From Curvularia clavata (lineage: Eukaryota), in the NCBI GenBank assembly GCA_023920165.1, contig CP089280.1:310001-374000 (forward strand): a stretch of DNA of 64,000 nt, written 5' to 3'. Under the pieces are notes generated by a model. That model had not been told where the DNA came from. It searched no databases and saw only the letters and a list, made by a program, of their open reading frames with translations. Both the position numbers and the translations under genes were made by a program. Positions 29,238-61,400 of this stretch are shown piece after piece (within the stretch, counting starts at the first letter, position 1; every line of letters starts with the position of its first letter).

Positions 29238-31028
29238 TTACTTCAGCATTCCAGGATGCAGCAATGGCTGCAGTGGTGTGGATAATCTCCTCGATGTAGG
29301 AGGACGAGCATAATCTTTGCCAAACCCTTCCACGCGAGACGAAAGGTTCCTGTCAAGACGCTCGTGCTTGGCCGGAGGAGTGGCTTTGCGCTCTTGTCGT
29401 CGCGATTCACTTAAAGTGTCGACAGAATGGACCTTCTTCGGTTGTCTGGCTTGGACAGTTGCTGTATCGGCGTTAGATATCTGCGATCCAGAAGGGGTTG
29501 AGTAGTGGTCAATTACTTGTTCAAAATTCAAACGGTCCATGCTACGCCACCAGCGCTCCTTATCTTCTCGCGGATCAACTACGGAGGCTAGGTCGACTTC
29601 GGAGCCTGAGGAAGTAGACGGACGGTGCCATGTCTCGTAGGTGGTCTGTGGACGGCTGGCGAAACGGTCTGTGTTAGTGGGGTTCCGACGTTGAGTTGAT
29701 GACGGACGGTATTCGCTCGTTCTACGACTCAAAGGTCTATCAGAGCGATACAGGTTACGAAGACCTCCTGAACGGGAAGCCGTTTCTGCATAAGGCGCCA
29801 CTGTATGTGGTCGGGACGGAGAAATCTCTGCGGCATCCATCAAAGAAGGTGATGGTGTCTGATGATCCCCGCGGTACCGTCCAGAAGGGTCTCGCGGGGT
29901 GGGCGACCTGTCTTCTTCCTCTTGGACTGGAGCCATCTTTTGCTCACATGCAGAACATGGAGTTTCATCGCGAAGGGCTCTCAAGGATACCACTGACATG
30001 CGCTGAACCAGTTGACGAGCAGATTGCCTATGCTGTTCTGTCAAGTCAAGGAATTTCTTGGATCGCTCCGAGGGCACAAATGTCTTGAACGATTCGCTGC
30101 TTCGCTTTTCCTTCTTTACCTGGGGCGAGGAAGGCTGGCTATAGTAGTCCGAGTCAAAATGACTAGTCGAAGGCCGCGACTCATCCACACTGTAGACGCG
30201 CGAGGGATACTTGTCGGGTCCAGGAATGAGCGAGCTTTGAGAAGAGGCGAATTCAATGGCTGTGACTCGCTCTTTGAGTTCCCGGAGCTCCTTGGTCAGC
30301 ACAGCCTTCTCTTCCTCCATGGCGATGATGCATTCGGCCGCCTCTTCAATTGCCGCTTCGTGAGCGGACCAATGCGTAGCACTCTCGCTGGCTATGGCGG
30401 TAAGCTCCTCGTTGATCTTGCGATGGTCTTCGTTGACGGCTTTGAGACGTTCCATTTCGTCCTTCATCTTTTCCATTTTGAGCTTCAAGTGCTGGTTCTC
30501 TGCGCGGAGTTGTTGAACCTCGTCTTGACACGGCTCGAGGCGTTCGAGTTCCTCCAGGGCCGACGTCAGTTTGACCTGGGTTTCTTTCCTGTTCTTATCG
30601 AGGAGTTCGACGCGCATGTTGGCAGTCATGAGGGATTCTTTGAGCTGTTCGACCTCTTTGCTGAGCTCTCGATTTGTCTTGGAGGCATAACCAAAGTCTG
30701 AAGGTCGCCTTCGCTGAATGGGAGAAACGGGTGCTGTCTGTTCTTCGGAAAGGGCATACTGGAGAAAGATATCGGGTGAGACTTCAGGTTTCGGTACCTC
30801 GTGGGCGCTCGGAGCAGGAGAGGACGACTTGAGTTTAAGGTCTGGAGGGGTTCGGGTTGGTGTCGTTTGCGATTGCGACCTCCGTGCATGGATGGCGTTT
30901 TTGAGATACTCAGACTTGGGCGCAACAGAAAAACCACCCGAACGTGAGGCGGAAGATCGCGGTGAATCGGGGGTGGCCGGAAGGAGATCTCCGTAAAAAG
31001 AGGAGCGACGAGAAGATGGAGTCGACAT
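29238..31028 (-). CDS. Hypothetical coiled-coil protein with Ser/Pro/Arg-rich tails
   Basis: 596-aa ORF with heptad coiled coil (ELSKEVEQLKESL...ELRELKERV). A possible last intron 29241..29168 would change the C-terminus. Confidence 0.75.
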   Translation of the reverse strand: MSTPSSRRSSFYGDLLPATPDSPRSSASRSGGFSVAPKSEYLKNAIHARRSQSQTTPTRTPPDLKLKSSSPAPSAHEVPKPEVSPDIFLQYALSEEQTAPVSPIQRRRPSDFGYASKTNRELSKEVEQLKESLMTANMRVELLDKNRKETQVKLTSALEELERLEPCQDEVQQLRAENQHLKLKMEKMKDEMERLKAVNEDHRKINEELTAIASESATHWSAHEAAIEEAAECIIAMEEEKAVLTKELRELKERVTAIEFASSQSSLIPGPDKYPSRVYSVDESRPSTSHFDSDYYSQPSSPQVKKEKRSSESFKTFVPSERSKKFLDLTEQHRQSARQLVQRMSVVSLRALRDETPCSACEQKMAPVQEEEDRSPTPRDPSGRYRGDHQTPSPSLMDAAEISPSRPHTVAPYAETASRSGGLRNLYRSDRPLSRRTSEYRPSSTQRRNPTNTDRFASRPQTTYETWHRPSTSSGSEVDLASVVDPREDKERWWRSMDRLNFEQVIDHYSTPSGSQISNADTATVQARQPKKVHSVDTLSESRRQERKATPPAKHERLDRNLSSRVEGFGKDYARPPTSRRLSTPLQPLLHPGMLK

Positions 31029-32620
31029 ATTGGTATAGGGTTACTAGAGCGTGGTGGATAGATGATCGCGACGGAAGCGACTTTTAAATGGACGGCTAGA
31101 CGCCGCAGGGCCAAGAAACAAGAACTTGTGTTGTAACAAAGTTATGCGATTATAAACGTCAAGTCGTGTGCGAGAACAGTGTAGGTAGGGATGTCGCGTG
31201 GCGGCGCGTGAATTGTAGTATAGCGTGTAAAGACGGGAGGAAAGTCGCTCGGGAGCGGATCGCCCTTGGGTTCCATTGAGCGCTTGTTGGGCGCGTCTCT
31301 GTCGAAGTTTACACTGTGCGGTAGCGGAGAAAAAGGGTGGACAGCCGAGAGTGGCGAATATCGAGAGGGCGTAGGTTTAGTGTACAATGTTGTTGTTGGT
31401 GGTAGTCTTGAGGCTGCGTCTGGGCGCGCAATCACGCGCGCAAGTCTGGCACAAGCAATATGGAGAGGGCGACGCGGAGCAGGTGGCAGACAGGGTGGCG
31501 TGTAGCAAGAGACGTGTGGGAAGGGCGCGCGAGCAGACAGTGAGTGGTGAATGGCAAAATGGCCATAGGGGTGGTTGAATCGGGCACCAAAAAGGCCCAG
31601 GCCGCCACCCGAGCCAGGGGAGCGCCTTACCCCAGATTGGGCAAGCGAGAAAGGGGAAGAGAGTAGAGTAGTGCAATGGGAACAGGCAGCGTCCGGCACG
31701 ATCCAGCGTCATGGGCTGCCTCGCTCGTCAAGGCCTCTCATTAGCTGCACTGGCGACGGCGAGGGCGGTGGCGTGGGGATAGAGCGAGGAGAGAGGGGCG
31801 TTGGAGACCCCCTGTGCGGCCTGCATAAGGGTTGCATGGCGTCACAGAAGCCGTCGCCATGACATGCACGCGGGTTGACTGTCCACTCTGACGGCACAAG
31901 GACGTGCATGGTGACGCATGGGACCGAAGGATAGGCCCATCACACGAGACGGTCGTTGGGCGGCGTGTCAAAGAAGAAAAAACGGGCGGCGCGTTCCTAG
32001 GGCGTGACTGATGTTGGGCGTGTTGAGGCCTGTGATTGGCTGCGCGGCTGTCATGGCGGAACCGCCTTGAGCTCGACGGTGATTGGCCAGACTGCGGTTG
32101 GCTGCTCACCACACCCTTGAATATACGTCTTCCGACTCCCTAGATCAGATAACTTGGGCCGTTGTCTTGTCGGCCCTGCCCTGCCCTGCCCTGCCCTTTA
32201 GCCGTAGCCCGCGCGCCTCAACTGTCAAACTCTGAGCTGACCGGAGCATGAACCCGGAACCAAGCTGCAGTGATCGCCCTCGGACTCTCCTCCGCACCCC
32301 TCGCTCCCTCGGACTCATGTCGGCCAGCCAATCTATACCAGCCATCTGCTGTCTTACGTTACCCTCTGCTTGCATGTTTCCTATGCCATCCATATAGAGC
32401 ACGACAGGGATACCAACCGTACCCTAAACCTTGGTCCGTCAGCGGCGCCGAATACCGAATCCTCCAGCCTGAATCATCACCACATGTATACATTACACCC
32501 AATTAGAAACAATGCCAATATTACACATGTACTCTGGGTACATGGCACCTACATGCTCTCGGCCTTCTTGCCTCAATGCTTGTCCATGTCCGCCACTCTT
32601 GTATCAACACGCTTGCTACT

Positions 32621-45178: not shown

Positions 45179-46604
45179 CTAATTGCAATTGTATGCGCGA
45201 CTCGTTCTTTTAATGCTGCGAGTTTTTCCGTCCGCGGTCCAAGTCGTGAGGTAAACGCGGCAGATGTGGTGGTTGCTTGTAGGGTATTGCTGTTTAGAAT
45301 TGGGTGTCGGCAACGGTTTTAGGCGCTGCTGAGGTGCGGAAGAATTCCTGACGAGGCCGATCAGGTCGCACGGTATACCGACTTGTTTGCGATATTCGGG
45401 GGTGAAGGTGTATTAGCTGTGGTGCGTGAAAAAGGGCCTGTTCTAGGGGCGCGCAGAGACGACAAGGTCGTGCGACAGAGAAGACCAAAGTAAAAGGGGT
45501 CAAGTTCACGGGTTGAAGGTGAAGTGGTAAAGGGACGATCGCAAAGAGAGCATCGTAGGATATCGGAGAGCTCGGTGGTTAATCGGCAGTCTACGGGGTC
45601 AAGACACGTCCTTGGGTGTGCGGTGTCTGCCGTATGACGCTCGAAGAGGGGTGGTTTTGGCTTTAAAGCGGGGGAGGGGAAGAGCTCCACAGCCAACAAC
45701 ACGGCTGCAAAGATGCCCAGGCTTGTCACATGGAGCCTCAAATCTTTCAGCCTCCCCCGAGGTCGAGAGGCAAGCCGTTAATCGCCTTCGGAATCGTCGA
45801 TCAAGCCGACGGCTAGCAAAACTAGACCTTTTGCCCGGCAACCCATCCGCGCGTATGTCAGTGTGACTTCACATACAGCGGGTCGCTCGACCAACAACTC
45901 CACATGCATTCGCGCCGTCCTTTTTCTCCAGTGGGACCTCCAGTGGGACACCCGCGAATCCACCTAGAGCCTCATCAAGCAGCCGGCAACTCCAGGGCGC
46001 TCCCTGCCTGTTTGGTGGTATACATAAGTAGGCCCCAGACTCAGCCCGAGTTTCGGCTTTTGATATACCACCAGAGCGCTGTGCCCAGCCCTCGACGCGG
46101 CTTGACAAGTCCCAACATGTCACCGCGACGTCGGGAAAGGGCGATTGCTTTTTCCATGATGACTCGCCATTGGGCTGTGCCACATATTCCGCATCGCAGA
46201 GAAAAGGAATGATCTTCTTGGTAGAGGGTCCTTAGCGTGAGGACATGACTGCGCACACCGTGTTCAAACCTCAGTCGCACTTTTTTTTCATCCAGGACAT
46301 CACCACAACCATGGTATTTTCACAAGTGCCACAGTCTCCCACGGAAGGATTGGCGCCGAGCACAAGAGCCGCTTCGAGACCGATGGCTATCACGTCGGAT
46401 GTAGGCAGGATGTTTAACGATATAAAGTAACGTCTCCGCAATCGGTGGAGCAGAGTGGAGTGGACTCGTAATGTCAGAAACTCAAACCTTGGGGGTGGCT
46501 GGAAGGCGAACTAGCACGTGATATCCACATTCGGTAGTTCCCGAAGACTCTAGAACTCCATTCCACCCAAAAAACCACCACCACCCCACTTCATATCGCC
46601 TGTC

Positions 46605-47372
46605 ATGGCTCTATCACTGCTGCCCAAGGAGCTTCGCCTGCAGATCTGGGCCCTCGCATACTTCAATGAGCCGCCTCGGCTAGTGGCGCTGGAAACGAAA
46701 CCACACAATGAAGGACACGACGAGCAGCACTTTTGCCCACGCTACAGCCCCAGCCCGGCCCCCACAGTAGTGAACCTGTGCCGAGAATCGCGTGGGGAAG
46801 CTCATTATCAGGCCACCAAGGCGAACCACATTGTCAAGCTCCCCACTGGTCTTGCGGGCATCCGTTGTGACCAATTTTATTTCCGTGTTGAGACAGACAT
46901 ACTCTTGGTCCAGCTTGAAGGACCACGTGTAAAACACTACGACGATTCACCAGAAGTGGGACTGTTGGCGCACTTTCACGTTGCGACTGGTTGCGTCCCG
47001 ACCATGTTGAAAACCATTGCAGTAACAAAAGTTGTTTTGAACGGCTTCCGAGACGGCAGTCTCTCTAACGTCCTGCGGGATTTCCCACACATCTCACGCA
47101 TGGTTATGATGCTCACAGAAGAAACCTTCGACAATGAAACGCAGAAAGAGCTCTTCGTTCGTGCGGCTGCAAGAATAGTGCGCATGTACAAAATTGATCT
47201 CATGAACCATGCTCGTAGCCAAGGCGAGACGTACAGAGCACACCCCTTCGATGTGGATTTTGCAAGACTGCGCCATGGGCGCCTAGATATCGTCCCGAAA
47301 GACGTGTGGAGAGAGTGGAGCGACGGAGGTGATGGCTGGGCAACCCTGGACAATTCTGAGCCCTTTTGGTAA
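46605..47372 (+). CDS. 2EXR-domain protein
   Basis: N-terminal LPKELRLQIW, P.VVNLCRESR.EA and FYFRVETDILL pattern; 255-aa intronless ORF. Confidence 0.75.
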   Translation: MALSLLPKELRLQIWALAYFNEPPRLVALETKPHNEGHDEQHFCPRYSPSPAPTVVNLCRESRGEAHYQATKANHIVKLPTGLAGIRCDQFYFRVETDILLVQLEGPRVKHYDDSPEVGLLAHFHVATGCVPTMLKTIAVTKVVLNGFRDGSLSNVLRDFPHISRMVMMLTEETFDNETQKELFVRAAARIVRMYKIDLMNHARSQGETYRAHPFDVDFARLRHGRLDIVPKDVWREWSDGGDGWATLDNSEPFW

Positions 47373-47420
47373 CATGTGGAGTGCAGTATGTATCTACTAC
47401 TGCTAGATCGCGCATATACA

Positions 47421-48499
47421 CTAGGGAACTTCGTTGTATATCCGATCGCCCTCCTTTGGTAAAGCCAAGAAGTCAGTTGGGGTACTTTCTGCGTTTGGTA
47501 ACTGGTGCTTTTCTGCCCACTCTCTAATAGCATCAAAGTTACGACAAGTGTGAACAGTATTGAAATCGACAAAGGCCTGCAAAAATTCACCAGGAGGCTG
47601 GTACCAGACCTGGCCAAGGACACTGACATCCACTACACACATGAGTTGCTGGCGCAGTGTATCGAGGCAATGGGCTAAATCGCTATGAGTTGTATGAATT
47701 GCTGTAGAAGCGTGCAGTTTCACTCACTGACGTGATGCTTTAGGATATTCGCGTCGTTTGCGAAAGGACCCACACCCTGCTTCTTATAGTAGTCGATGTT
47801 CCAAGCTAAAGATTTGCGCAGCAGGTTCTAGTCGAAAATTAGTCCAGACTAGTAAGGATGCACAACGGAACACACCAAGCAATGTAGATGATGCAACCCT
47901 TCCACGTTTGCAGGATATCCACCGCCGTACTCTTCCTTAATCTTAACTTGGTCTGGAGCAAGGCCAGAACGCTGGGCTTCTTCTACTGGTATCCTTGCCG
48001 CATGATCTGTGCTGAAGCTCAACATTTGGTACTTCTTTAAACCGAGTGCGTACCTTACAATCTACGCCCAACGCCTTCCACGCCGCGTCTACTTCAGGAC
48101 CGGCATCCAGCCGGTACTTATTGGGCTTCAGTAACGAGCCATTGAATTGTACCTGGTGGTATGTAATACCAACGTCGTGTATGATTGGAGCTAACAACGT
48201 CAGCAGAGTATTTCAACAACCGGCCTTCTAAACGTACAGTACTTCGAAGTATGCCTCGCACAGAGTAAATCAATGTCTGACTGTTGGGCCTTGACTAGCA
48301 ATCCTCCAAGCAGTGCAGAAAATACTGCTGTGAAGCAAATAATCATAGTGGCTTGCTTCCACGATAGACCTCTTGACGCTGGCTGCGTTGGCCATGAGTC
48401 GAGTGACGATCGATCGCTCCCTGCGAGGAGTTTCTCACAGTCCTCTGCGTCTGTTTCATTCTTCGGATTGGAGTGTTTTCTGGAGCTAAAACCAACCAT
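47421..48499 (-). CDS. DUF3328/UstYa-family oxidase
   Basis: Five exons: 48499-48238, 48190-48059, 48006-47876, 47827-47728, 47674-47421, all GT-AG and in frame. N-terminal TM helix, PEVDAAW, VEGLHHLHCLNLLRK, HVTHCLDTLRQQLMC.VD, H.CRNFDAIREWA. Alternative ATG at 48541. Confidence 0.9.
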
Positions 48500-49804
48500 G
48501 TTGCTGAAGTTGGTGGACGCAGAGCTTGCATGCGTGAACATTAAGGACGAAGCAGTAATAGAATATGGAAATCACCAAACTAGAAATGTCCAAAACAACT
48601 ATTTGCCTCGTTAACATATTTGCAGGCAGAACACATGAATATTATTTTTCCCAAAATATTTTTCTACTCCTCTCCAGTTACCCCGCAGAAGCTGAACACG
48701 ACTGACGAGGCACCGTCCACTCGCGATCGCTGGTGGCGCATAGGGCTGGATTGGTCTTGGCGACATTTCTGTATTCTATCGTATGATTCTTGGTACTCTA
48801 GTTTTAAACGCCACGCTGATTCTCGATTAAGCGAAAAGGGATGTCTGTAATTGGTAAACTTGAGCCGTGTCAGTGCCATTGACGCACTACTACACATGCA
48901 TGGACTGATTAGGACAATGAATTATAATCAAAACCACATGAGAAACACTTCATAAAGGAGAGCGATGTGTTCATTTAGAGTATGAGTCTTATTAATAACT
49001 CACTGAGCAATATCTGAAGTCGTCCAGCATTGAACTACACCACATGTGCTCCTCTTCATCACAATAAATGACCCGGCTAGTTCACAATGGGCGCATATAG
49101 GACAACAACCGAAAGCCATACGCCACCATGTACCAACATAAAGAAAAGTATCTCATTGGGCGCCACATACCTTCAGCTCTCATCCAGAGCGTGGTCTTCC
49201 ATGTTGGCAATGGTACTTTGCACGGCCAGTAGACAGTAGGTGGCGACGTTGATCCTGACAAGTAACATTAGGCACTGAGTTCTAGTGCAGCCATTTCCTG
49301 GGCATGCGATCTAGATTCGATTCGTAAGAAACCCCAGATATAGACATTGGTTCGTTGAAAGCTAGAAGTGCAGGGATCTATGAGTCCATTTGACCTTCAT
49401 TCGCCGCGCAAAATACAATTGCTGGCACGAATGTACCTCTTTGGCTCCAAGACCCCTCTCGAACCGCCACCATCGATACTTTGTAAACTTCTCCACAGAC
49501 GCCACATGCTTGGCTAAAGCCTACTGTAGTGAGGGCTGACCTACGATCAACCCATGAGTGCAATCTACGCGGTGATCAGTGACTCTTCGAGGACTAGCTC
49601 AAAGGTCGGCTTTGAAGCTGAAACTAATCAAGCTTGTTGAATGACACCTTGGTTGTAAGCGAAAATCACTGTCCGCTTCTAGGGTCTCATTTGTGTATAT
49701 AACGAGCCTCTCCGACTGTGCTGACTTGTACCATTATCTGCTTAACTGAATCCTCTATCGTATTGCATAACTCAACGACAGCGCATATAAAGACTACCAC
49801 AACC

Positions 49805-50054
49805 ATGAAGTGCATTCTTTCCCTAGTTGCTCTCGCATCGTGCGCTCTCGCGGCGCCGGCCGCTCAGCCTGTTGCTGAGCCTGCCGCTCGGCCCGGTTAC
49901 AATGGCTATGGTAAGTAGCCAATCCCGTAGCTACACCCGGACCCCGTCATATCCGGAATTTTTCACTGACAACCATTCAGGCAAATACGGATCATATGGC
50001 TCTTACCCGCCTCCGCCAGGTGGGTATGGTAGCTACGGCGCTTACAAGGAATGA
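49805..50054 (+). CDS. 59-aa secreted Tyr/Gly-rich peptide, candidate RiPP precursor: MKCILSLVALASCALAAPAAQPVAEPAARPGYNGYGKYGSYGSYPPPPGGYGSYGAYKE
   Basis: TATATAA at 49696, ACCATG start, signal peptide. Intron 49911..49980 (GTAAGT...CTGAC...CAG) joins two YGx-repeat exons in frame. Confidence 0.8.
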
Positions 50055-50800
50055 GCTCTCGTAGGATATGAAGCCTAGACGCGCGATTAAGGAGCGTAGG
50101 GAATGAGGTCGGATCAATGGCAAGCAGCCATGTATCAGACGCTAAAATAATGTGAAACAGTAACGAAAATGTCAAATATTTGTCTTCAAGCATGTCTAAG
50201 ACATAACATTGGTTGAAACCACGTGTGATAATGGTATACAATTGTGGAAATATCTTACCGGGGTGCAAGGAAATTTACCGATCCACAATCTTCATGCTTC
50301 ACAGAAGGGGGTCTTGGTAGTATAATAACCCTGGGCTGTATCATCCAAGACAAGACTACGGTACCGTGCGAAAAAAAAACGGGTTCGGGTTTAGTAGCAG
50401 CCTAAAAATGCCCAATCCTAAAGCCGATGCCCATTGTCATATAACACATGGCTAAAACCAGCTCTCTACAAATAATGCATGCTCATTGCACAGTCATAGC
50501 CAACCCGTCCAATAATGCTTCTACCAGTTCAAGAGACGAATATAGAATTATTTGAGCAAAGCTGTTTCTCCAGCCAATCACACTAAAACACAATAACTCA
50601 GAGTTTCCAAACTGAGAAGAAGCAGTGATTCAAGCAGGCAAGTAGAAGGGCCATTGGCTTCAAGAACCCGAAACCAAACATACCTTGTGAACGTAATACA
50701 GGTCTTTGTAGCGTCTATTAGCAAAAAACTAATAGCACTAGCATGCCTCTTCCCGTCACTTGACATTTATGTGACTCTAAATGAAGTGCCAAAAACAAAA

Positions 50801-50919: not shown

Positions 50920-53055
50920 GCAAGGCATTCAGGTGAGTGACAATGTAAATCTCATCGTCCCAACGGATCAGACAAAGGAACAACTGCAAACATATCAACA
51001 CAGTACTGTAGAGCGCCCAGATACTCGCAAGAGACTGTCTTTCATAGCAGGTTTATCTTAAATTCTCTATTCATACGATTAACCAATGCAGCAAGCTGTG
51101 GTGTAGGAAGGTGGTGTCGGTGAAGGATACGTTCACGTGACCATTACAGAACTGGAGGCAACAAACGCTGGGGCCACCCAGAGAAATAGTTTAGTGATAT
51201 TTGTTTTAGCGAAATTTACTTGAATTTTCCCAGTCTACCTCAATCTGTTTGCGGCTGAATGTGTACCCTACATTACCGTGCTGCAATAGTTATGGTAACT
51301 CCAGCACAGCCATGTTACCCTGCCATCGATAAGTGTGCTATGTGCTTCCGCCATGCTGTTTTAGGTTTCTTGAAGCTCCAACATCGCCCGCAAGTCTGCA
51401 CAGCGCTGTCTGTTACCAGAAAAAGACGTATCATGTCACTCAATTAAGAACAGAAAGCAGCACGATGAGGCGCGAGGGTCCAGTCCAATTGAGTCCAAGC
51501 GAGGAGATAAACATTGGCGCATGGGGCTTAATCACGTAATGAAATCTCCGGCCAAGAAGTACATTGGGGGCCAAAGAAGGGGCCGCAGTCAGGGACCTCT
51601 CACAGGATGCCAGGATACCTGGATGAGACGGTAGCGACCGCGGCAAGATCACAAGGAGAGGTAAACAAAATGGACCCATCTGTAGGATCTGATCCAAAGA
51701 GCCGCAGATGAAATCTAGCAGGGCGGGTTCTCCACAGATACTGTATGCTAGCGCGTACTTAGCAGCCAATCGGCAGCCGAGTAATACACTTCATAGGTCC
51801 GCCCTGATCCAGTGCCGTGGTGTTAGTCTGCTAATAATACTTGTTGGAATCTTGTATACGAAAAATGCGAGACGCAGTATAAACTAGAGTGATAAATTAG
51901 CTCGTTTAAACAGAGATTGGGGGCCATGAATACAGCGAACCTAGTACGAGGGATCTTGTCTTCAGTATCACAGGAATTATTTCCAAAAATCGGTAAGAGC
52001 ACAAAGATAAGAGATTGCTGCTAGCCATTTCAACCAATTACTCGGCAGGATGGTGATCTCTAAAATCCTCACTAGCGATTCCGCCTGTGACGACAACAAT
52101 ACAAGTGTCTTCGAGGGTTTTTACTAGGTACCCCATACCGCCCCCAAGATCCAAGCCTTGCCAAGTCCCCGAGCTTGGCGGGCTGCGTAGTTAGCTGACC
52201 AATAAGAGGTATCCGCTCCGGGCATGGAATGTGGGTCATCGACTTGAGTACTGGTGGCCTGAAAATAGCGATAAATATGTTTTTCCAAAACACGACCAGA
52301 AGTACGATGGCAGCCTGGAGAGATTTTACAAGCTTAATTGTACGTCATTACAAACAAATCCCAATGATCTAGTATACGAAGACAGCTCTTACTTCTATAT
52401 AGGCATTGCCATGGTGCTCGAGAATAGGTACCATGACTCGACGAGCGCATCAGCCTTGTCCCGTTTTCACCTGCACAGATGGTACTTTTACGTGGCTGCG
52501 ATGACAGCCGGAACCAGCCCCTGATTAGAAACAACTCAGAGCTTAGCTTACTGTAAAGTTTCACGATATTAGGTTCAGGAAATGAACGGCACGGTCTGGA
52601 GCCTATCACCATCCAAGATTCTCTTCAGCTGATGATATGAACTGCCTCAAAGAGTACACCGACCATCTCTCGCTAACGTCAGTAACCGCTGTACCGCTGT
52701 AGGTGGCTGTATGAAGACCGAAGCCATCCCTCGAACAGGAAGTTCCGCGAGCTTCAGCTGAGACTATGCAGATGAAGTACCTTGACAAGCGCACCAACCT
52801 CATCACTATGCCTGTACGCGATGTGTGCCCCATGGGGGCTATTCTGTGAATAGCATCATCGTATCCCTCGACGGAGGATACGAACCACCTAATCTAAACA
52901 ACTCACCGGCTTGGATTAAGTATAAATATGCCAGGTAACTCCGATATTCGACCATCATCCTCACCTACTTCAACCTCATTGGCATCAACAGCCCTCACTA
53001 CCACATACACATTCATTAAACGGACCACTTAATCGATCACTTCACCAACACCGCC

Positions 53056-53304
53056 ATGAAGCTCACTCTCATCCTCGCTACCCTCGCCGCCACTGTCCTC
53101 GCCGTCCCACACGCGAGCGACATTACCGCTGTCGAGGCGAGCCTTGATTCCCGCGCCGACAACTGCTTCCACGCCTCGCAATGTGCCACCTTCTGGACCG
53201 GCAAGTGCGAGAATCACTGCGGCTCCCGTGGCTTCTCCCACATGAGCCGTGACGGATGCAGCACGCTTAAGCTTCAGAAGAAGTGCTGCTGCATCAAGCC
53301 ATAA
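53056..53304 (+). CDS. Small secreted 8-Cys defensin-like/effector candidate
   Basis: TATAAA at 52921, GCCATG start, signal peptide, acidic propeptide ending LDSR, 49-aa mature region with CxxxC and terminal CCC. Confidence 0.85.
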   Translation: MKLTLILATLAATVLAVPHASDITAVEASLDSRADNCFHASQCATFWTGKCENHCGSRGFSHMSRDGCSTLKLQKKCCCIKP

Positions 53305-55722: not shown

Positions 55723-58476
55723 TTAGTATGTTCCGCCCAGGCTGTTCCATGCAGCCAAGACATCTTCGCTAACGCTATCTCTATCGTCGTTGGCGACGCG
55801 GGGAGTGGTCGTAATGCAGTCTGGGCTGAGATGGCGCGACCTGGTTTTGCCTGCACTGTTGATATAGGTGGAACCATGTGACGATGTACGCGACCCTGTT
55901 GAATGAGGGCTGCTCTGCCGATTTCGTGTCTCTATGCTCCCAAGTGCTACCTCACTAATGTGCCTTACGGTCTTTTTCTGTGGCTTCGGAGCTGGTGGCT
56001 CAACGATACTGGGTGGACGGGACGAGCCTTCCGATACTGAAGCCAGGTCGCGGAAACTGTGCGAGGTAGGCGGAACAGGAAACTTGATTTCGGCATCACT
56101 AGATGCGGTTCGACGGCGTCGATGCGCACCGAGTTCGCGAGATGAATCGGACTTGATACTCTCTGGTGGCGCGCCAATAACGCCTTGGTCGAGGACCGGC
56201 ATGTCGTCTAGGTCGTTGCTCGTATCACTGTCTGCTACTTTGACATCGACGTCACGATCACTGACATAGCGAGCAGGCGTCAAAGGCGACGGCAAAGGCG
56301 ATGGGTGATCAGTGGTAGTAGGTGATGTTGCGCCTGCAGCAGGCGTAGGAGAACGGGGCGAGGAAGGATGCAGCCCTGAAAACTCATGCGATGCCATGAA
56401 ATGAGGTGACCTCCCTCGGCTGGCCGGAGAGTGGTTACGGTCCGACCAAGCATCGCTTATAGAGCTGTCTCGAAGTTGACTGGCACTGACAACACTGTTG
56501 ACTTTTGCTGACCTGCCACGCGCAGAAGGCTGGTGTGGTGCTGACGCGCTCGATGTTGTGCGATCTCTTGACATGGTGTCCATGCGCACAGGACTTGATT
56601 CAGAGGGACCCGATTTGCCATGCCCATGTTGCTTGTGGGCTTCACCTCCTGACGCCTGTGATCCACAGTGTTTGTGCATGGCCGCACGCTTTTTTCTCAT
56701 AAGTTCCAGCAAGGCCTCCTCCTCCGCGGTGACCTGCATGAACCTCTGAGACGTATCGGTTTGCGGCTGTGGCGCACTGGCTGAAGTACGGGAACTCATT
56801 ACACTGCGGTTCGATGGCGACGCGGGCTCATCAAAAGCAATCTTTGGACGAGAGTCCTCATCTTCAAGGATCACGGATGGCTGTCGCATATGGCTGGTCC
56901 GTCTGCCACCGCTATAGGTGCGGTTGCGTGAATAGCGATGCGTAGGCAAAGGTGGTGGTTCAGGCGTGTACATGATGTCAATTGTCGCAGCATTGGTGGA
57001 TGTAGAGTAGGTACTCATCTTCCCTGCAGAGTGCTGACGACGGTGCGGAGAACGCATGTCAAACGTTTGGGCGCGTCCAATGACAATGTCTCCAGTGTAA
57101 TCCGTACTGTCCACGCTCTGGCGGTTCAAAGCGTTTCTGGATTCAAACTGGCCCGAGTCACCTTCATCTTCGGAAGACGAAAACGACAAGACACTCGAGT
57201 CCTGAAGATTGGTCTTTGCAAGTAGGGACTCTTTGGTTCTCGACGAGGTCTGCGAGTGATATGTGTTGACCGAGTACTGGCTAGGCGAGGTCAAATGACG
57301 TAGGTCGACAATATCCTCGAGCGCAAAACTATCCCTTTTGTACGTCGCTGGCATGTTTTGCGACCGCGAGCCGTATGACGAGTTTCTCGTTGATTGGGAG
57401 GCGTTAGCCACAGGGGCATTGCGGGTTGACGAACCATGTGCGCGGACAGCCCGCGGAGCCGATGTTTGCCTCATTTCCTCGGGATTCTCGTCACTATCCT
57501 CGTCAAGCGCATCGAACCAATGTTGAACCCCCTTTGGTGGACGACGTACGTGCACTTTGGCATTGTCGTACTCATCCCTCTCGACAATGCGGACCGGGCT
57601 TGATGGTCGGCGTGATGAGGGCTTGTTCTTCTGTAATTTGTTGGGTGTTGCCTGTGGAGTCCGGTCTCTGGATGGAGAGCGATGGAAATATTCAGAGTTC
57701 ATCGACATGGCGGCAGGCGAGTTGACCATCTTGGCCGGGGAGAGCATTGCGTTGCCATGGCGCTGGTCCCAGCTGTCCTTTGGCTTGGGAAATAGCCGCG
57801 AGAGATCCAGCCGTGCAGGTTTTCCCTTTTTATGTTCCTTCTTCCTTGCTTCGTCTAGGATGACGGGCGAAATTGGATTCGCCACATAGCCATCGTAACC
57901 CTTATCAGTCAGTACTGGGGTACGCCCTCTTCTGAGGGCCCGATCCCGGATCGCCGAGTCAGAGGTTTGCTGGGAGATGGACAAGGGTGAGTTCTTCGCA
58001 TCGTAATGCGATCGAAGGGTTGAGTTGGACGTCTGTGGATGTAGTCGATGGCTGGATGCGCTGTGGTCGAAGCCCCACTTTCTCTCCCCAGAGTATATTC
58101 GCCCCAGCACGTTGGAAGATGGCTGTCTAGACATGGGGGGCCGTCTCGTATCGTCTGCTGTCGACACTGAATGCCAATCGTCTACGTGTGAGCCAGCACT
58201 CGTCTCCGATATGACGACTGATATAAACCCAGGGCTCGGTGGCGGTAATGATGGTGTCGGCGTCGAGGGGTGTAAGGAGTTGGAGGTGCCTAGAACCTCG
58301 TGTGCCTTACTGGTTGGCTCTTCGGGACGAGAGGGTCGTATAGAGCCAGAGATGGAGGGAGGTATCGAGCGGGCGTCAGTATCATCCTCGTCGTCGAGGG
58401 GCTTTTGAATTCTAGTTCGCGATCGGCGAGGTAGAGGGAAGGAGAACTTCTTTGGTCCGCGGTCGCTGCGAGACAT
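55723..58476 (-). CDS. Hypothetical Ser/Pro/Arg-rich, largely disordered protein (917 aa)
   Basis: Long uninterrupted ORF with short motif-like islands (RLDLSRLFPKP, VRRPPKGVQHWFD, VTAEEEALLELMRKKR, SVSEDVLAAWNSLGG). Confidence 0.8.
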   Translation of the reverse strand: MSRSDRGPKKFSFPLPRRSRTRIQKPLDDEDDTDARSIPPSISGSIRPSRPEEPTSKAHEVLGTSNSLHPSTPTPSLPPPSPGFISVVISETSAGSHVDDWHSVSTADDTRRPPMSRQPSSNVLGRIYSGERKWGFDHSASSHRLHPQTSNSTLRSHYDAKNSPLSISQQTSDSAIRDRALRRGRTPVLTDKGYDGYVANPISPVILDEARKKEHKKGKPARLDLSRLFPKPKDSWDQRHGNAMLSPAKMVNSPAAMSMNSEYFHRSPSRDRTPQATPNKLQKNKPSSRRPSSPVRIVERDEYDNAKVHVRRPPKGVQHWFDALDEDSDENPEEMRQTSAPRAVRAHGSSTRNAPVANASQSTRNSSYGSRSQNMPATYKRDSFALEDIVDLRHLTSPSQYSVNTYHSQTSSRTKESLLAKTNLQDSSVLSFSSSEDEGDSGQFESRNALNRQSVDSTDYTGDIVIGRAQTFDMRSPHRRQHSAGKMSTYSTSTNAATIDIMYTPEPPPLPTHRYSRNRTYSGGRRTSHMRQPSVILEDEDSRPKIAFDEPASPSNRSVMSSRTSASAPQPQTDTSQRFMQVTAEEEALLELMRKKRAAMHKHCGSQASGGEAHKQHGHGKSGPSESSPVRMDTMSRDRTTSSASAPHQPSARGRSAKVNSVVSASQLRDSSISDAWSDRNHSPASRGRSPHFMASHEFSGLHPSSPRSPTPAAGATSPTTTDHPSPLPSPLTPARYVSDRDVDVKVADSDTSNDLDDMPVLDQGVIGAPPESIKSDSSRELGAHRRRRTASSDAEIKFPVPPTSHSFRDLASVSEGSSRPPSIVEPPAPKPQKKTVRHISEVALGSIETRNRQSSPHSTGSRTSSHGSTYINSAGKTRSRHLSPDCITTTPRVANDDRDSVSEDVLAAWNSLGGTY

Positions 58477-61400
58477 GATGCATGAACACGTTGAGAGCCG
58501 AAAGGAAGGATAGTGGCTTCGGTCCTAGTGGAGCCGCGACTCAGTAAAGTTAGGGACAAACTGGTAGGGACTGAATCGCGGCGCGCGCTGATGCCGTCAC
58601 CCCAATTCCCGAATAAGGTCTGGGTTAAGCCGAAAGCATATTGTGTGCTATCGTGAACCGGGGGGCAGGCAGGACATGCGGGCGAGCGGGGGGGGAGTTT
58701 GCTTTTTGGCGTGGTGCGAGGGCGCGATATGCGGTGGATAATGTAGGTACAACAAGGACGACGGAGAAATCCAAAGGGTTCAACAGCGGGCCCCTACTTG
58801 GCCAAGTTGCGCAAGACGCTAATCCGTCGTGGGATGGAGTGTTATCTGCAGGAACGGCAGCGCAAAAAGACCGAGCAGTACGATGTCATGAAGAACCGGG
58901 CGATGACGGAAAGGCTGCGGATGAGAGGATGGTGGGTGCAGTTTTGCGAGCGACCCAGGACGAAGGCGAGGCTTGCCAAACAAAAAGAATTGAGGGCAGG
59001 TATAGCACCAGAGTATTAAAGCCCATGGATTTGCTAGAATGTCGCGCTTGAGAGAGACGGCCGTCGCTCTGGTAGGATCCGCGTGGTAGTCGGCGCCAGG
59101 GGTGTCAGCCGGAAGATGTGCGGATCGCCCCCCTGCACCAGCTTGCCAGCCAGCCCTGCACGGCTCTGCCAGAAGCCACTGCTTCATGACAGGCCGAGTG
59201 TATACAAGAGGAGGGCTTGGCGTCGTCTTGTGTCACCAGACGATATCGGCAGCCATGGTTCTGTGTATCAGGGTGGACATGTGCATGCAGCAGCGGGAGC
59301 CGTGTTCATTGCTGTACCAGATAAATTGCGCGCAGTAGTGTAGAAAGTAGATGGTTGAGGCCGCTATAGTTCAGCGTACCGAACCTTTTTGCGCCGTACG
59401 AAGCTTCCGTGCGTTCCTGGCGTTGCGCTAGCCAGCTCCGATAGGTATAGCAAGGGCCATGGCGACTTGAGGCTGTTGAGCGCTTTGACGCCTGCCTCAG
59501 TTGTCGATGGCATGATATATAAATACATTCCCTGGCAATTTCCACACCTGGCACATGTACGAATGTCCCTTGGGTTCTGTCGCCGTGCTCGTGTTCCCCG
59601 CAAAGTTTGGTCGACCCCTAATTGACGACGACGAGCGGGAGGCGGCATTGGGCCCAAGCCAGCGTGTTGGCTCGTATGGAGGCAAGTGCAGTACTTTACA
59701 GGAAGGCAATGGAGCTGCCAAGCCACGTGGCTACGAGCAACTTTTTGAGATTTGAAATATTGATTTGACCCGATGAGTGTGGGGTCTCTGGTGTGCGGGA
59801 GATGCTCACAGCTCAGGGGGTGAGTGTGGCATGCACCCTGCGATCAGCGCATGCTCTTCGGCGTCGTGGTGATCCTGTGGGCTCTCTCACGATGATCATG
59901 AACATGTTCGTCTTGCTGATGGGCGCAGTGGATCCGGATGTGCGATGGGCTTTGAGTCTGACGACGCTCGTTCCCCTGGAGTCTGGACTGCGCTAGACCT
60001 TGCGGGGACTGTCTTGGTGGTGGTAGTCGTCGTTAGTTGGCAAAAGGTAGCTCTTTTGGAATGGAGGCTCGCTCGGGACTCGAGCACCTCGCCCACCATG
60101 GGCCGTCGTGTGTTTCACAGCGGGCATGTGAATATTGTCAAATACTGCCACTTTGCTCGAGAGGGTTAGCTCGAGCACGTGATCAGAGTTGACCATGGAG
60201 ATGCCGTGTTGTGAAATTGCGAGCGTCAAACACTGGTAGTGAAACACTTGCAAACTCATTCCCTGTGTCACAAGTCTAATTCACTGCGAAGGTTTGGTGG
60301 CCTCGGAGGGTTTAAGCTTGGCGGTTAAGATGTGCAGAGGCGGAAAGACGAATATCCGCGAGTTGGGCTGCAAGCAGTGTGTTAAGCTTTGCGAAGACTT
60401 GAAACAAATAGCACGATGGCCCTTGGTCGAAAGCATCTTTATTGTAGATCGACTGCAGGAGCTTGCAGATTGTCTCTGCCAACATGAGATGGAACGACTT
60501 GGTCACGCACAGCCTGGTATGTCAGAAAAGCCGAGCTTACAGTGTTGACTGTGTTGTGAGCCGTGGCGTGAGGGAGCATACTAGTGGCGAAAAGGTGAGG
60601 CTGACCATGTGTGCGGACAGAAGACGGTGAGGTCAAGATGGGATGGCCCAGCGTACAAGAATGACGTCTTGGTTGCCGGCGTAGCTTCCCTATGAACGCT
60701 GTCTGCTGGCCAAGGGAAGGAGCGACGCATCGCCTTGAGACGTCAGCCTCGTCATTTTCGGACCAAGCAGACGATAACCGTTGGGAGACCTCACACGGTC
60801 TTCTATAAGCATCGTCAGCTCGATACTAGACCCTTAGGTGCATGCAAGTCGTGCAGTCGACTGACGCTCTCTAACCAGTGCCTAGTATTATTATTATTTT
60901 CCTGTCCTTCTCGCGACGTCCCACGTGCGCTGCAGAGGAGGCGTCGAGTGGCCGTGCTCGCCCCAGGCGCGCCCTTTTTTGACAGCACATACTGGGCGGC
61001 GCTTGTTGTTCGCATTTTTTTTCCTTGCCACAGTCGAGCAAATGGCGTCAGGATACTGCCTACATACATGGCACACATGTACATAATCAGGCGGATGCGG
61101 AATGGGCCCGACCAGGCCAGCCAGCCTGCGGGCTCACCTCAAGGCCGCACAGCTGGCTGGGTGCATGCAGCGACGGGCGGCTGGGCTGGGCCGGACAGAA
61201 GATAACACGACAAAAGCCAGTGCCAGCTCGAGAAGCAGTGCAATCAATCTTCAATGCATGCTGGCCGAGTTTTGCATGGAGATAATTTGCGGCGGCTGTC
61301 GACCGATGCGGCACCAAATTGACATGGCGGGAAGTCAGGATTAGGGTTAGCCAAGCTAGACCAGCCCGCCCTGCAAGTGCTCATGCCTTCGCTCGCTCGT

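Follow-up and report, generated by a model that had tools for sequence, protein, structure and literature searches.

When a gene for an enzyme of the UstYa/DUF3328 family and a gene for a small Tyr-rich secreted peptide lie head-to-head in a fungal genome, do they encode an enzyme and its substrate, or are they simply neighbors? This question is raised by a stretch of 64,000 nucleotides from Curvularia clavata (GenBank assembly GCA_023920165.1, contig CP089280.1, positions 310,001 to 374,000 of the forward strand), which is called the window in the following and in which position 1 is the first letter. The two genes occupy 47421..48499 on the minus strand and 49805..50054 on the plus strand. 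An initial annotation, made from the letters of the sequence, had proposed that they constitute a two-gene system. The analysis presented here assigns a probability of roughly 0.6 to the reading that the precursor of 59 amino acid residues and the divergently transcribed UstYa gene form a dikaritin-like module of two genes for a peptide that is ribosomally synthesized and then modified after translation (RiPP), with a logic that is nearest to that of asperipin-2a.

Results

Conservation of the head-to-head gene pair

Metagenome contigs were scanned with an alignment of nine UstYa orthologues, and at least 590 pattern matches and 142 confirmed relatives were obtained. The best 80 of the 142 were analyzed and fell into 59 groups at 95% identity or more, the loci of which are designated by L and a number. 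Presence of a peptide gene was judged in the 24 groups in which the contig extends 2 kb or more upstream from the estimated start of UstYa, and in all 24 a Tyr-rich peptide gene was located upstream on the opposite strand. A strict motif (four Tyr with a period of three residues) identifies the peptide gene in 16 of these loci; in the other eight it was recognized by a composition scan (L021, L031/32, L045, L053, and L067) or by homologous Tyr-rich exons (L073, L063, and L058). Among loci with 1.5-1.9 kb of upstream sequence, L002, L033, L071, and L068 also carry a peptide gene, and none was found within the sequence of that length for L070 and L038; the upstream sequences of the other groups are too short for a judgment. 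When the strict motif was counted over the 59 representatives, 86 matches were obtained on the minus strand of the upstream sequences, none inside the UstYa genes and none in 156,519 nt of downstream sequence. Four matches occurred on the upstream plus strand, and the three that were checked are antisense frames of peptide genes, the one of L006 being unchecked. The outcome that had been named beforehand as speaking against the proposal, namely peptides that are not linked to DUF3328 genes, was thus not encountered when starting from the enzyme, as 24 of 24 judged loci are linked.

These counts bear on the simplest alternative, a chance adjacency of an unrelated small open reading frame (ORF) and a stand-alone UstYa gene. 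Before the comparison a single locus was known and the peptide was absent from the protein collection, which would both agree with such an accident. Its probability is considered to be close to nil: the small ORF is a spliced transcript in four of four RNA runs, the peptide has homologues in other fungi, and the recurrence at 24 of 24 loci together with the absence of motif matches from the downstream control of 156 kb refutes it.

To survey the genes surrounding the pair, 141 flank ORFs of 16 long loci were compared with Pfam, and the outer flanks were found to fall into at least eight contexts. These are 2EXR with or without an FGGY kinase, as in the window (L021, L032); Sen15 and DUF2985 (L030, L054, L067, and L074, three of them with a Zn2Cys6 factor); a multicopper oxidase, ATG17, and an aspartic protease (L024); a GDSL lipase (L034, L041); an M28 peptidase, a glutamine synthetase, and an ABC transporter (L045); HET and AA9 (L053); an esterase and a ferroportin (L061); and Usp and TPR (L026). 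Within the same set of flanks no tailoring enzyme, methyltransferase, or transporter recurs, none of the 141 ORFs has a tyrosinase domain, and conserved genes that could encode another substrate of UstYa are lacking. That the pair is retained in all judged loci while its outer flanks differ supports the earlier proposal of a two-gene system. Two individual neighbors may be mentioned: in one lineage a gene for a Zn2Cys6 transcription factor lies directly past the peptide gene (upstream ends of L054, L067, and L074), and at L024:2619-3296 a multicopper oxidase gene occupies the same place, neither of them recurring in the other contexts.

A quick tree of the UstYa C-terminal domain was made from 48 rows, to which the window contributed one, named proteins 13, and the 59 group representatives 34; five rows were less than half filled, with values of the Shimodaira-Hasegawa-like approximate likelihood ratio test as the only support and with a midpoint root. 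In this tree Bipolaris, L032, and L013 are the companions of the window's UstYa (support 96). Loci whose peptides combine a KR site with a C-terminal tail fall into a clade with Pleurostoma, Podospora, and Diplogelasinospora (support 95), and both single-chain peptides and peptides with several KR-delimited cores occur amid Pleosporales names (L002 and L007 with Ascochyta). Loci bearing the peptide are found on either side of the midpoint root. Judged from these sequences, the pair is conserved across Pezizomycotina, in fungi of at least three classes.

The peptide gene and its predicted precursor

In the gene model, exon 1 of the peptide gene (49805..49910, plus strand) and exon 2 with the stop codon (49981..50054, plus strand), which is backed by the homologues P0001-P0004, are separated by an intron of 70 nt with GT..AG borders (49911..49980), and the spliced product has 59 residues. 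A signal peptide of 16 residues (49805-49852) is predicted by inspection only: the stretch MKCILSLVALASCALA has a hydrophobic core and Ala at positions -3 and -1, and the precursors of the relatives start with a similar stretch. The following pro-region of 14 residues, APAAQPVAEPAARP (49853-49894), consists of seven X-Pro/X-Ala dipeptides, the second residues of which read PAPAPAP (7/7 Pro or Ala). Dipeptides of the X-Ala/X-Pro type are described as the STE13 signature (Le Marquer et al., PMC6339444), and as this signature is present ahead of the mature peptide in the window's precursor, cleavage of the leader by a Ste13-type enzyme is predicted. The predicted core begins in exon 1 with GYNGY and the first base of a Gly codon and continues in exon 2 with KYGSYGSYPPPPGGYGSYGAYKE. 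It comprises 29 residues, 8 of which are Tyr (positions 2, 5, 8, 11, 14, 21, 24, and 27), and a PPPPGG hinge separates its two Tyr blocks. For the unmodified 29-mer a monoisotopic mass of 3055.330 was calculated. The 59-residue product contains a single core and neither KR nor RR, and no Cys, no glycosylphosphatidylinositol (GPI)-type tail, and no wall-anchoring domain were found in it. A search with the exon-1 ORF gave 0 matches in the protein collection, from which the peptide of the window is absent.

The UstYa gene

The coding sequence of the UstYa/DUF3328 gene including its stop codon (47421..48499, minus strand, 879 nt, 292 residues) is distributed over five exons (48499-48238, 48190-48059, 48006-47876, 47827-47728, and 47674-47421), which are separated by introns of 47, 52, 48, and 53 nt, all four with GT..AG borders in the gene model. 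Three exon ORFs matched PF11807 UstYa in a Pfam scan (E = 2e-19, 1.2e-5, and 9.5e-9). The first HxxHC motif, HHLHC, is formed by residues 170-174 (47879..47893, minus strand) and the second, HVTHC, by residues 207-211 (47667..47734, minus strand), where it is interrupted by intron 4 (47675-47727). The gene model and the Pfam match therefore confirm the complete five-exon DUF3328 gene with both motifs that the initial annotation had described. In the alignment of the nine UstYa orthologues H170, H173, C174, H207, H210, and C211 are invariant, and so are C221 and C252. Residues 51-69 (48293..48349, minus strand) represent the top Kyte-Doolittle 19-mer of the protein (mean 2.27), the sole strong one, and are predicted to form a single transmembrane helix that is preceded by an N-terminal tail of about 50 residues. 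The protein is therefore predicted to have a type II membrane anchor and, by analogy with the DUF3328 enzyme CctR, a lumenal C-terminal domain.

The last exon of the gene is 100% identical to the corresponding part of P0005, a protein model of 303 residues from Curvularia clavata. P0005 agrees with the present model except for 11 extra residues at intron 2 (48007-48058), where it reads GVDCKKYQMLSFSTDH, whereas the orthologues and the model with the 52-nt GT..AG intron read GVDYHAAR. The public model P0005 is probably mis-spliced by these 11 residues.

The divergent promoter region, transcription, and splicing

Between the two start codons lies a divergent region of 1,305 bp (48500..49804), in agreement with the 1.3 kb estimated earlier, which contains both 5' untranslated regions and the promoters. 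Contigs from four RNA or probable-RNA runs, belonging to four studies, were compared over positions 46900-50600. Spliced transcript of the peptide gene covers 49730..50201 (plus strand), with contigs starting at 49730-49745, about 30-45 nt downstream of a TATA-box-like TATATAA (49696..49702, plus strand) that may have a promoter role. The transcript of the UstYa gene with its untranslated regions is covered over 47169..48682 (minus strand), the contigs extending to 48578 in run X7 and to 48682 in run X16. Over 48683-49729 no RNA contig was present in the four runs, to which no weight as evidence is attached.

The peptide joint 49910|49981 is present in the contigs of all four runs, exactly as had been predicted for the spliced gene of a secreted peptide of 59 residues. 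UstYa introns 1, 3, and 4 are joined in contigs of runs X7 and X8, both of which show the joint 47674>47728 that splits the codons of HVTHC. The proposed junctions thus stand for the peptide intron and for these three UstYa introns, and for intron 2 no bridging contig was found among the four runs; its support comes from orthologues that read GVDYHA(A/V)R across the junction. Transcripts of both genes occur in all four runs, a joint presence that is a weak hint of co-expression. The word depth of the contigs was 68.4, 134.7, 11.7, and 22.5 for the peptide and about 1.5-9 for UstYa, contig word depth being a poor measure for ranking expression.

Two further features of the UstYa transcripts were noticed. 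An X8 contig skips 53 nt within exon 2 (48116>48170) with CT..AC on the plus strand and thus GT..AG on the gene strand; the shorter side of this joint has just 21 letters and the reading frame is broken, and a minor non-productive isoform or an assembly artefact is possible. At position 48341, the third position of UstYa codon 53 (Ile), all four runs have a synonymous A>G exchange, which looks like a strain difference rather than editing.

The family of Tyr-rich precursors

A search with the exon-2 ORF revealed secreted homologues in Coniochaeta and Pseudogymnoascus. P0001 was found with a significant score (E = 2.5e-6), and P0002-P0004, with E values of 1.5-3.0, were taken as relatives on account of a common YGSYPPPPGGY...GGYGSYGSYKE pattern that was later matched by the wider family. 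Decapeptide-like DYPPPAGGYK repeats without KR sites occur in some relatives (P0002-P0004). When the multi-core relative from L002 was used as phmmer query, 67 representative proteins among 1.84 billion were obtained at E≤1e-3 and 13 at E≤1e-10, a set that includes P0093, an unrelated repeat protein matched via its spacers, and several mis-predicted fragments. For P0068 the ESM Atlas offered nothing above chance level, 0.80 being the top score.

Family statistics were obtained from 72 proteins, mis-predicted fragments included. Of 930 pairs of successive Tyr, 651 have a spacing of 3 residues, and a second mode of 7 residues (91 pairs) corresponds to the hinge Y-PPPxGG-Y. The residue after Tyr is Gly 495 times, and the one that follows is variable. 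Many relatives contain several cores that are cut at KR or RR, and the spacers after these sites are Glu-Ala, Glu-Pro, or Ser-Pro; at least two such sites are present in 13 of the 72 proteins, one in 29, and none in 30, and KR-delimited multi-core examples are found at L002, L007, L015, L024, L026-28, L034, L041, L054, and L074. The absence of KR/RR-delimited repeats that had been noted for the window's precursor is thus true of this copy, and many of its relatives do have such repeats. Six family proteins end in YK(K)E, as does the copy of the window.

Nine proteins (P0001, P0063, P0064, P0068, P0074, P0087, P0112, P0116, and P0117) carry past their last KR a conserved amphipathic tail of about 11 residues of the AVEDFVKxIFG type, for instance AVEDFVKNIFG or VADWVKSLWE. 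It is also encoded at L045:4145-4255(-), L053:4155-4463(-), and L061:3884-4015(-), and the precursor of the window lacks it. In these relatives of Sordariomycete type the tail may serve the enzyme as a follower or for recognition, or it may be set free as another peptide.

In several relatives the peptide gene has introns that match the site in the window, directly after YGxYG (L073:1400-1860(-), L063:4000-4700(-), L034, and L041), and L021 shows an in-frame read-through at the place where the intron of the window's gene is located. Several relatives have one exon per repeat unit, which is unusual in genes so small. On account of the intron placement and of these one-repeat exons, peptide genes are likely read through or missed by gene callers. 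The precursors are unannotated or mis-annotated in public records, and those of relatives are often read through their introns.

The spacers raise a second alternative to an enzyme and its substrate, in which the two genes are conserved, co-regulated neighbors sharing a bidirectional promoter and the peptide is secreted unmodified, like a pheromone or an antimicrobial peptide of the type of Kex2-processed repeat proteins (KEPs). Combined Kex2 and Ste13 signals are typical of unmodified signaling peptides such as alpha-factor, STE13 processing is not predicted for ustiloxin-type precursors according to Le Marquer et al. (PMC6339444), and DUF3328 enzymes are reported to have substrates besides ribosomal peptides (PMC12435403). 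However, the head-to-head arrangement is kept in 24 of 24 judged loci although the outer flanks differ, and neutral adjacency would not be expected to last down to about 35-40% UstYa identity. Moreover, the one invariant feature of the peptide is Tyr, the residue that UstYa homologues reportedly cross-link, and the flanks of the 16 long loci offer no other conserved candidate substrate gene. Mere neighborhood with an unmodified peptide is therefore regarded as quite unlikely.

Gene surroundings in the window

A Pfam scan of 250 stop-to-stop ORFs of the whole 64 kb revealed genes of housekeeping type (aminotransferase, Bys1, HSP70, Sds3, VPS13, and DUF3429), an F-box protein gene, an FGGY kinase gene at 43.2-45.2 kb, and a 2EXR-family gene at 46554-47369. 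The window contains one UstYa gene and one Tyr-rich ORF, and no polyketide synthase (PKS), nonribosomal peptide synthetase (NRPS), tyrosinase, methyltransferase, or transporter was found among the 250 ORFs. The earlier statement that tyrosinase, methyltransferase, and transporter are lacking holds for the window, and none of them is conserved at the loci of the relatives either. A larger biosynthetic cluster is rejected, as genes of these five kinds neither occur in the window nor are conserved in relatives.

About 3 kb past the Tyr-rich peptide gene, in the gene-poor region of about 50.2-55.7 kb, ORF 53053-53301 (plus strand) encodes a secreted-looking small protein with a signal-peptide-like start and 8 Cys, which has a weak match to the defensin-like family AtDEF (E = 2.2e-4, under the curated cutoff). 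Two long ORFs, 55726-58524 (minus strand, 933 residues) and 29241-31040 (minus strand, 600 residues), matched no Pfam family at E≤1e-3.

The neighborhood of housekeeping genes touches on a third alternative, in which enzyme and substrate are the same but the product is of another kind. Instead of yielding a discrete macrocyclic compound, the abundant peptide, rich in Tyr, Gly, and Pro, would serve outside the cell as a structural, adhesive, or self-assembling material that UstYa hydroxylates or cross-links between molecules. Processing of Tyr-rich proteins to small peptides, with cross-links formed through Tyr, is known from other organisms, for instance from plant extensins and from coccidian oocyst walls. 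Such neighbors and the wide conservation of the pair would suit a role at the cell surface more than that of a niche toxin, the long core is repetitive, with (Y-G-x)n blocks and a poly-Pro hinge, and the DYPPPAGGYK-like repeats of P0002-P0004 lack KR; in addition, contig depths of the peptide exceed those of UstYa in the four runs, with the reservation made above on depth as a measure of expression. On the other hand, most relatives are cut at KR into small units with Ste13-type spacers, as diffusible peptides are, and Cys, a GPI-type tail, and a wall-anchoring domain are all missing from the 59-residue product. The characterized UstYa-type reactions cited here are all intramolecular and take place on small peptides. 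An extracellular material is considered an unlikely function.

Discussion

To our knowledge, only few UstYa-type RiPPs have been characterized, namely ustiloxins, phomopsins, asperipin-2a, victorin, and epichloecyclins, and their cores are all short. Further UstYa-linked precursors are reportedly listed by Nagano et al. (2016) and Ding et al. (2016). Among these systems asperipin-2a from Aspergillus flavus (AprA/AprY) is closest to the pair of the window, as it is described with one UstYa enzyme, a Tyr-rich ribosomal precursor, and no tyrosinase. The single UstYa homologue AprY is reported to be essential for the bicycle of asperipin-2a, which is formed by ethers between Tyr side chains and beta-carbons, and has been proposed to perform sequential oxidative macrocyclizations on FYYTGY cores (PMC6514808). 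The Y-T-G-Y part of this core has the same Tyr-x-x-Tyr spacing as the family of the window. In contrast, the asperipin-2a cluster is reported to include a transporter and a reductase, none of which is conserved at window-type loci, and the AprA cores are short hexapeptides, whereas a core of the window's family is about 25-35 residues long, contains 5-10 Tyr, and has a poly-Pro hinge. The precursor of the window also differs from AprA in its single core, the lack of KR, and its Ste13-type leader, and the comparison is one of logic and gene layout.

Ustiloxin and phomopsin share with the window's family a signal-peptide precursor adjoining DUF3328 genes with two HxxHC motifs and Tyr as the cross-linked residue, and with the relatives the Kex2 KR sites between repeated cores. 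They differ in that their clusters (UstA/UstYa/UstYb/UstQ and PhomA/PhomYa-e/PhomQ) need a tyrosinase and several more tailoring enzymes, whereas the window has no tyrosinase and one DUF3328 gene, and in that their cores of 4-6 residues (YAIG, YVIG, YVIP) are far shorter. The Ste13-type spacers of the window's family are a further difference, such a signature not being predicted for ustiloxin-type precursors (Le Marquer et al., PMC6339444). Of the features of dikaritins, the locus of the window has the adjacent DUF3328 gene with two HxxHC motifs, the signal peptide (by inspection), and Tyr in the core; it has neither repeated cores separated by KR or RR nor a tyrosinase, the latter being a feature of the ustiloxin and phomopsin type and not of asperipin-2a. 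Because multiple KR-delimited cores and a tyrosinase are absent, the copy of the window is filed as dikaritin-like and not as a strict member.

Signal peptide, KR-delimited repeats, and X-Ala/X-Pro dipeptides are shared by KEPs, yeast alpha-factor included, and the relatives of the window's precursor; the KEP definition of at least two KR-flanked repeats applies to relatives and not to the copy of the window. Umemura (2020) reported that DUF3328 genes are enriched next to KEP genes (1,758 of 7,878 KEPs) and that Tyr occurs in 65.6% of the repeat sequences of KEPs with a DUF3328 neighbor versus 38.2% of those without (PMC7329392). The KEP type G-6 of that study, in which Pseudogymnoascus is represented, is rich in Tyr and Asp, and 46 of its 49 cases have a DUF3328 gene in the vicinity (PMC7329392). 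It is a candidate for an overlap with the family of the window, accessions being given there without sequences. Family members are present in Pseudogymnoascus (V500_00170, V502_08385, and VF21_02737), Mollisia scopiformis (KUJ18968), and Coniochaeta (KAB5583469). Five named members (KFZ02504, KFZ09970, KAB5583469, OBT78155, and KUJ18968) are absent from Table S2 of Umemura, which likewise holds accessions and no sequences. The core strings were not found in the supplements of the KEP surveys PMC7329392 and PMC6339444, in cells of up to 400 characters, nor did they match any fungal paper in a free-text literature search. This search, in which no paper printing these cores came up, agrees with the earlier remark that the core matches no recognized product. 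A KEP-type precursor adjoining a DUF3328 gene is known logic; the long Tyr cores with a period of three, the poly-Pro hinge, the Ste13-type spacers, and the lack of a third conserved gene are what differs.

Bacterial triceptides carry three-residue cyclophane cross-links that are introduced by radical S-adenosylmethionine enzymes on ribosomal peptides with repeat motifs, a likeness to the pair of the window in logic only. The same is true of the plant BURP-domain cyclases of burpitides, which resemble it in working logic only, the copper-dependent cross-linking of aromatic residues in ribosomal peptides with repeat motifs. In both cases protein families and organisms are unrelated to the pair of the window. 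Planar four-His sites of DUF3328 proteins are reported to resemble those of BURP proteins (PMC12435403). According to the same source, DUF3328 proteins are homodimers with a cytosolic tail, one transmembrane helix, and a lumenal helical domain, HxxHC(x)nHxxHC forms a binuclear copper site in them, and the DUF3328 enzyme CctR is located at membranes of Golgi, endosome, and vacuole (PMC12435403). A disulfide-linked homodimer and dependence on O2 and electrons are further marks of enzymes of the CctR type. The UstYa of the window is like CctR in its N-terminal tail, single transmembrane helix, and HxxHC(x)nHxxHC. The two differ in that CctR belongs to a large cluster and hydroxylates a non-ribosomal cyclic peptide, cyclochlorotine; copper binding by the UstYa of the window is predicted only.

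The pair is read as enzyme and substrate because both would enter the same secretory compartments, the peptide by means of its signal peptide and UstYa as a membrane-anchored lumenal enzyme, and UstYa very probably acts on the peptide of the window. The signal peptide would direct the precursor into the endoplasmic reticulum, and in the lumen of Golgi or endosomes the membrane-anchored, putatively binuclear-copper UstYa would oxidize the core in its two Tyr blocks around PPPPGG. A dipeptidyl aminopeptidase of the Ste13 type would trim the leader dipeptide by dipeptide, seven times in all, and in relatives cleavage at KR by Kex2, an enzyme reported to be located in the Golgi (PMC12048977), would free each core. 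A modified peptide of about 29 residues would then be secreted, and the product is probably such a discrete peptide rather than a polymer. As to the chemistry, serial side-chain cross-links between adjacent Tyr, with a loss of 2 Da per link and similar to what AprY forms in the YTGY part of asperipin-2a, are suggested tentatively, at somewhat less than even odds. Links from Tyr to Tyr are favored because the spacing of Tyr is kept, whereas Tyr is mostly followed by Gly, which lacks a beta-carbon, and then by a residue that varies. The main alternative chemistry is hydroxylation, as performed by CctR. A more far-reaching idea, which is speculative and on the whole rather unlikely, is that a single copper oxidase zips peptides of 25-35 residues into a ladder of consecutive Tyr-Tyr macrocycles and that this would be a widespread, near-housekeeping RiPP. 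The 29-mer of the window could then contain up to six macrocycles, four in Y2-Y14 and two in Y21-Y27.

Several points weigh against a dikaritin-like module. The product and the link between enzyme and peptide are predictions made from the genes. Linkage was counted from the side of the enzyme, so that peptides without a UstYa neighbor could exist, and as the choice of runs was made by words shared with a region that spans both genes, the occurrence of both transcripts in them is not an independent test of co-expression. The peptide of the window lacks two features of dikaritin precursors, multiple cores and KR sites, and its core is long and of low complexity, unlike characterized dikaritin cores of 4-6 residues. 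The position of the pair among housekeeping genes equally fits a general cellular role, and with 60-86% identity across Pleosporales the last exon of UstYa is unusually conserved for a cluster enzyme. Finally, DUF3328 enzymes such as CctR also modify non-ribosomal peptides, as reported in PMC12435403, and adjacency therefore leaves the substrate unfixed.

A survey of lichens describes conserved clans with a single ustY and no findable precursor, and mentions among the explanations that there may be just one core peptide (PMC12048977). These clans are reported to be flanked by GNAT acetyltransferases (PMC12048977), whereas window-type loci have other flanking genes. Since the precursors described here are unannotated or mis-annotated, UstY clusters without precursor may be an annotation artefact caused by small precursors that were missed.

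The pair represents a clean minimal system that is widely conserved: a single enzyme goes with a single small precursor, the gene of which is highly transcribed, and further tailoring genes are not conserved. Such a two-gene system is suited to defining the action of a single DUF3328 copper enzyme on Tyr-x-x-Tyr repeats and offers a route to a new peptide scaffold, and it raises the question of why fungi of at least three classes retain the pair. If a ladder of Tyr-Tyr macrocycles were indeed formed, the product would be to eukaryotes what multi-cyclophane peptides are to bacteria, much larger than the known dikaritins and made from small genes that are routinely missed by annotation pipelines.

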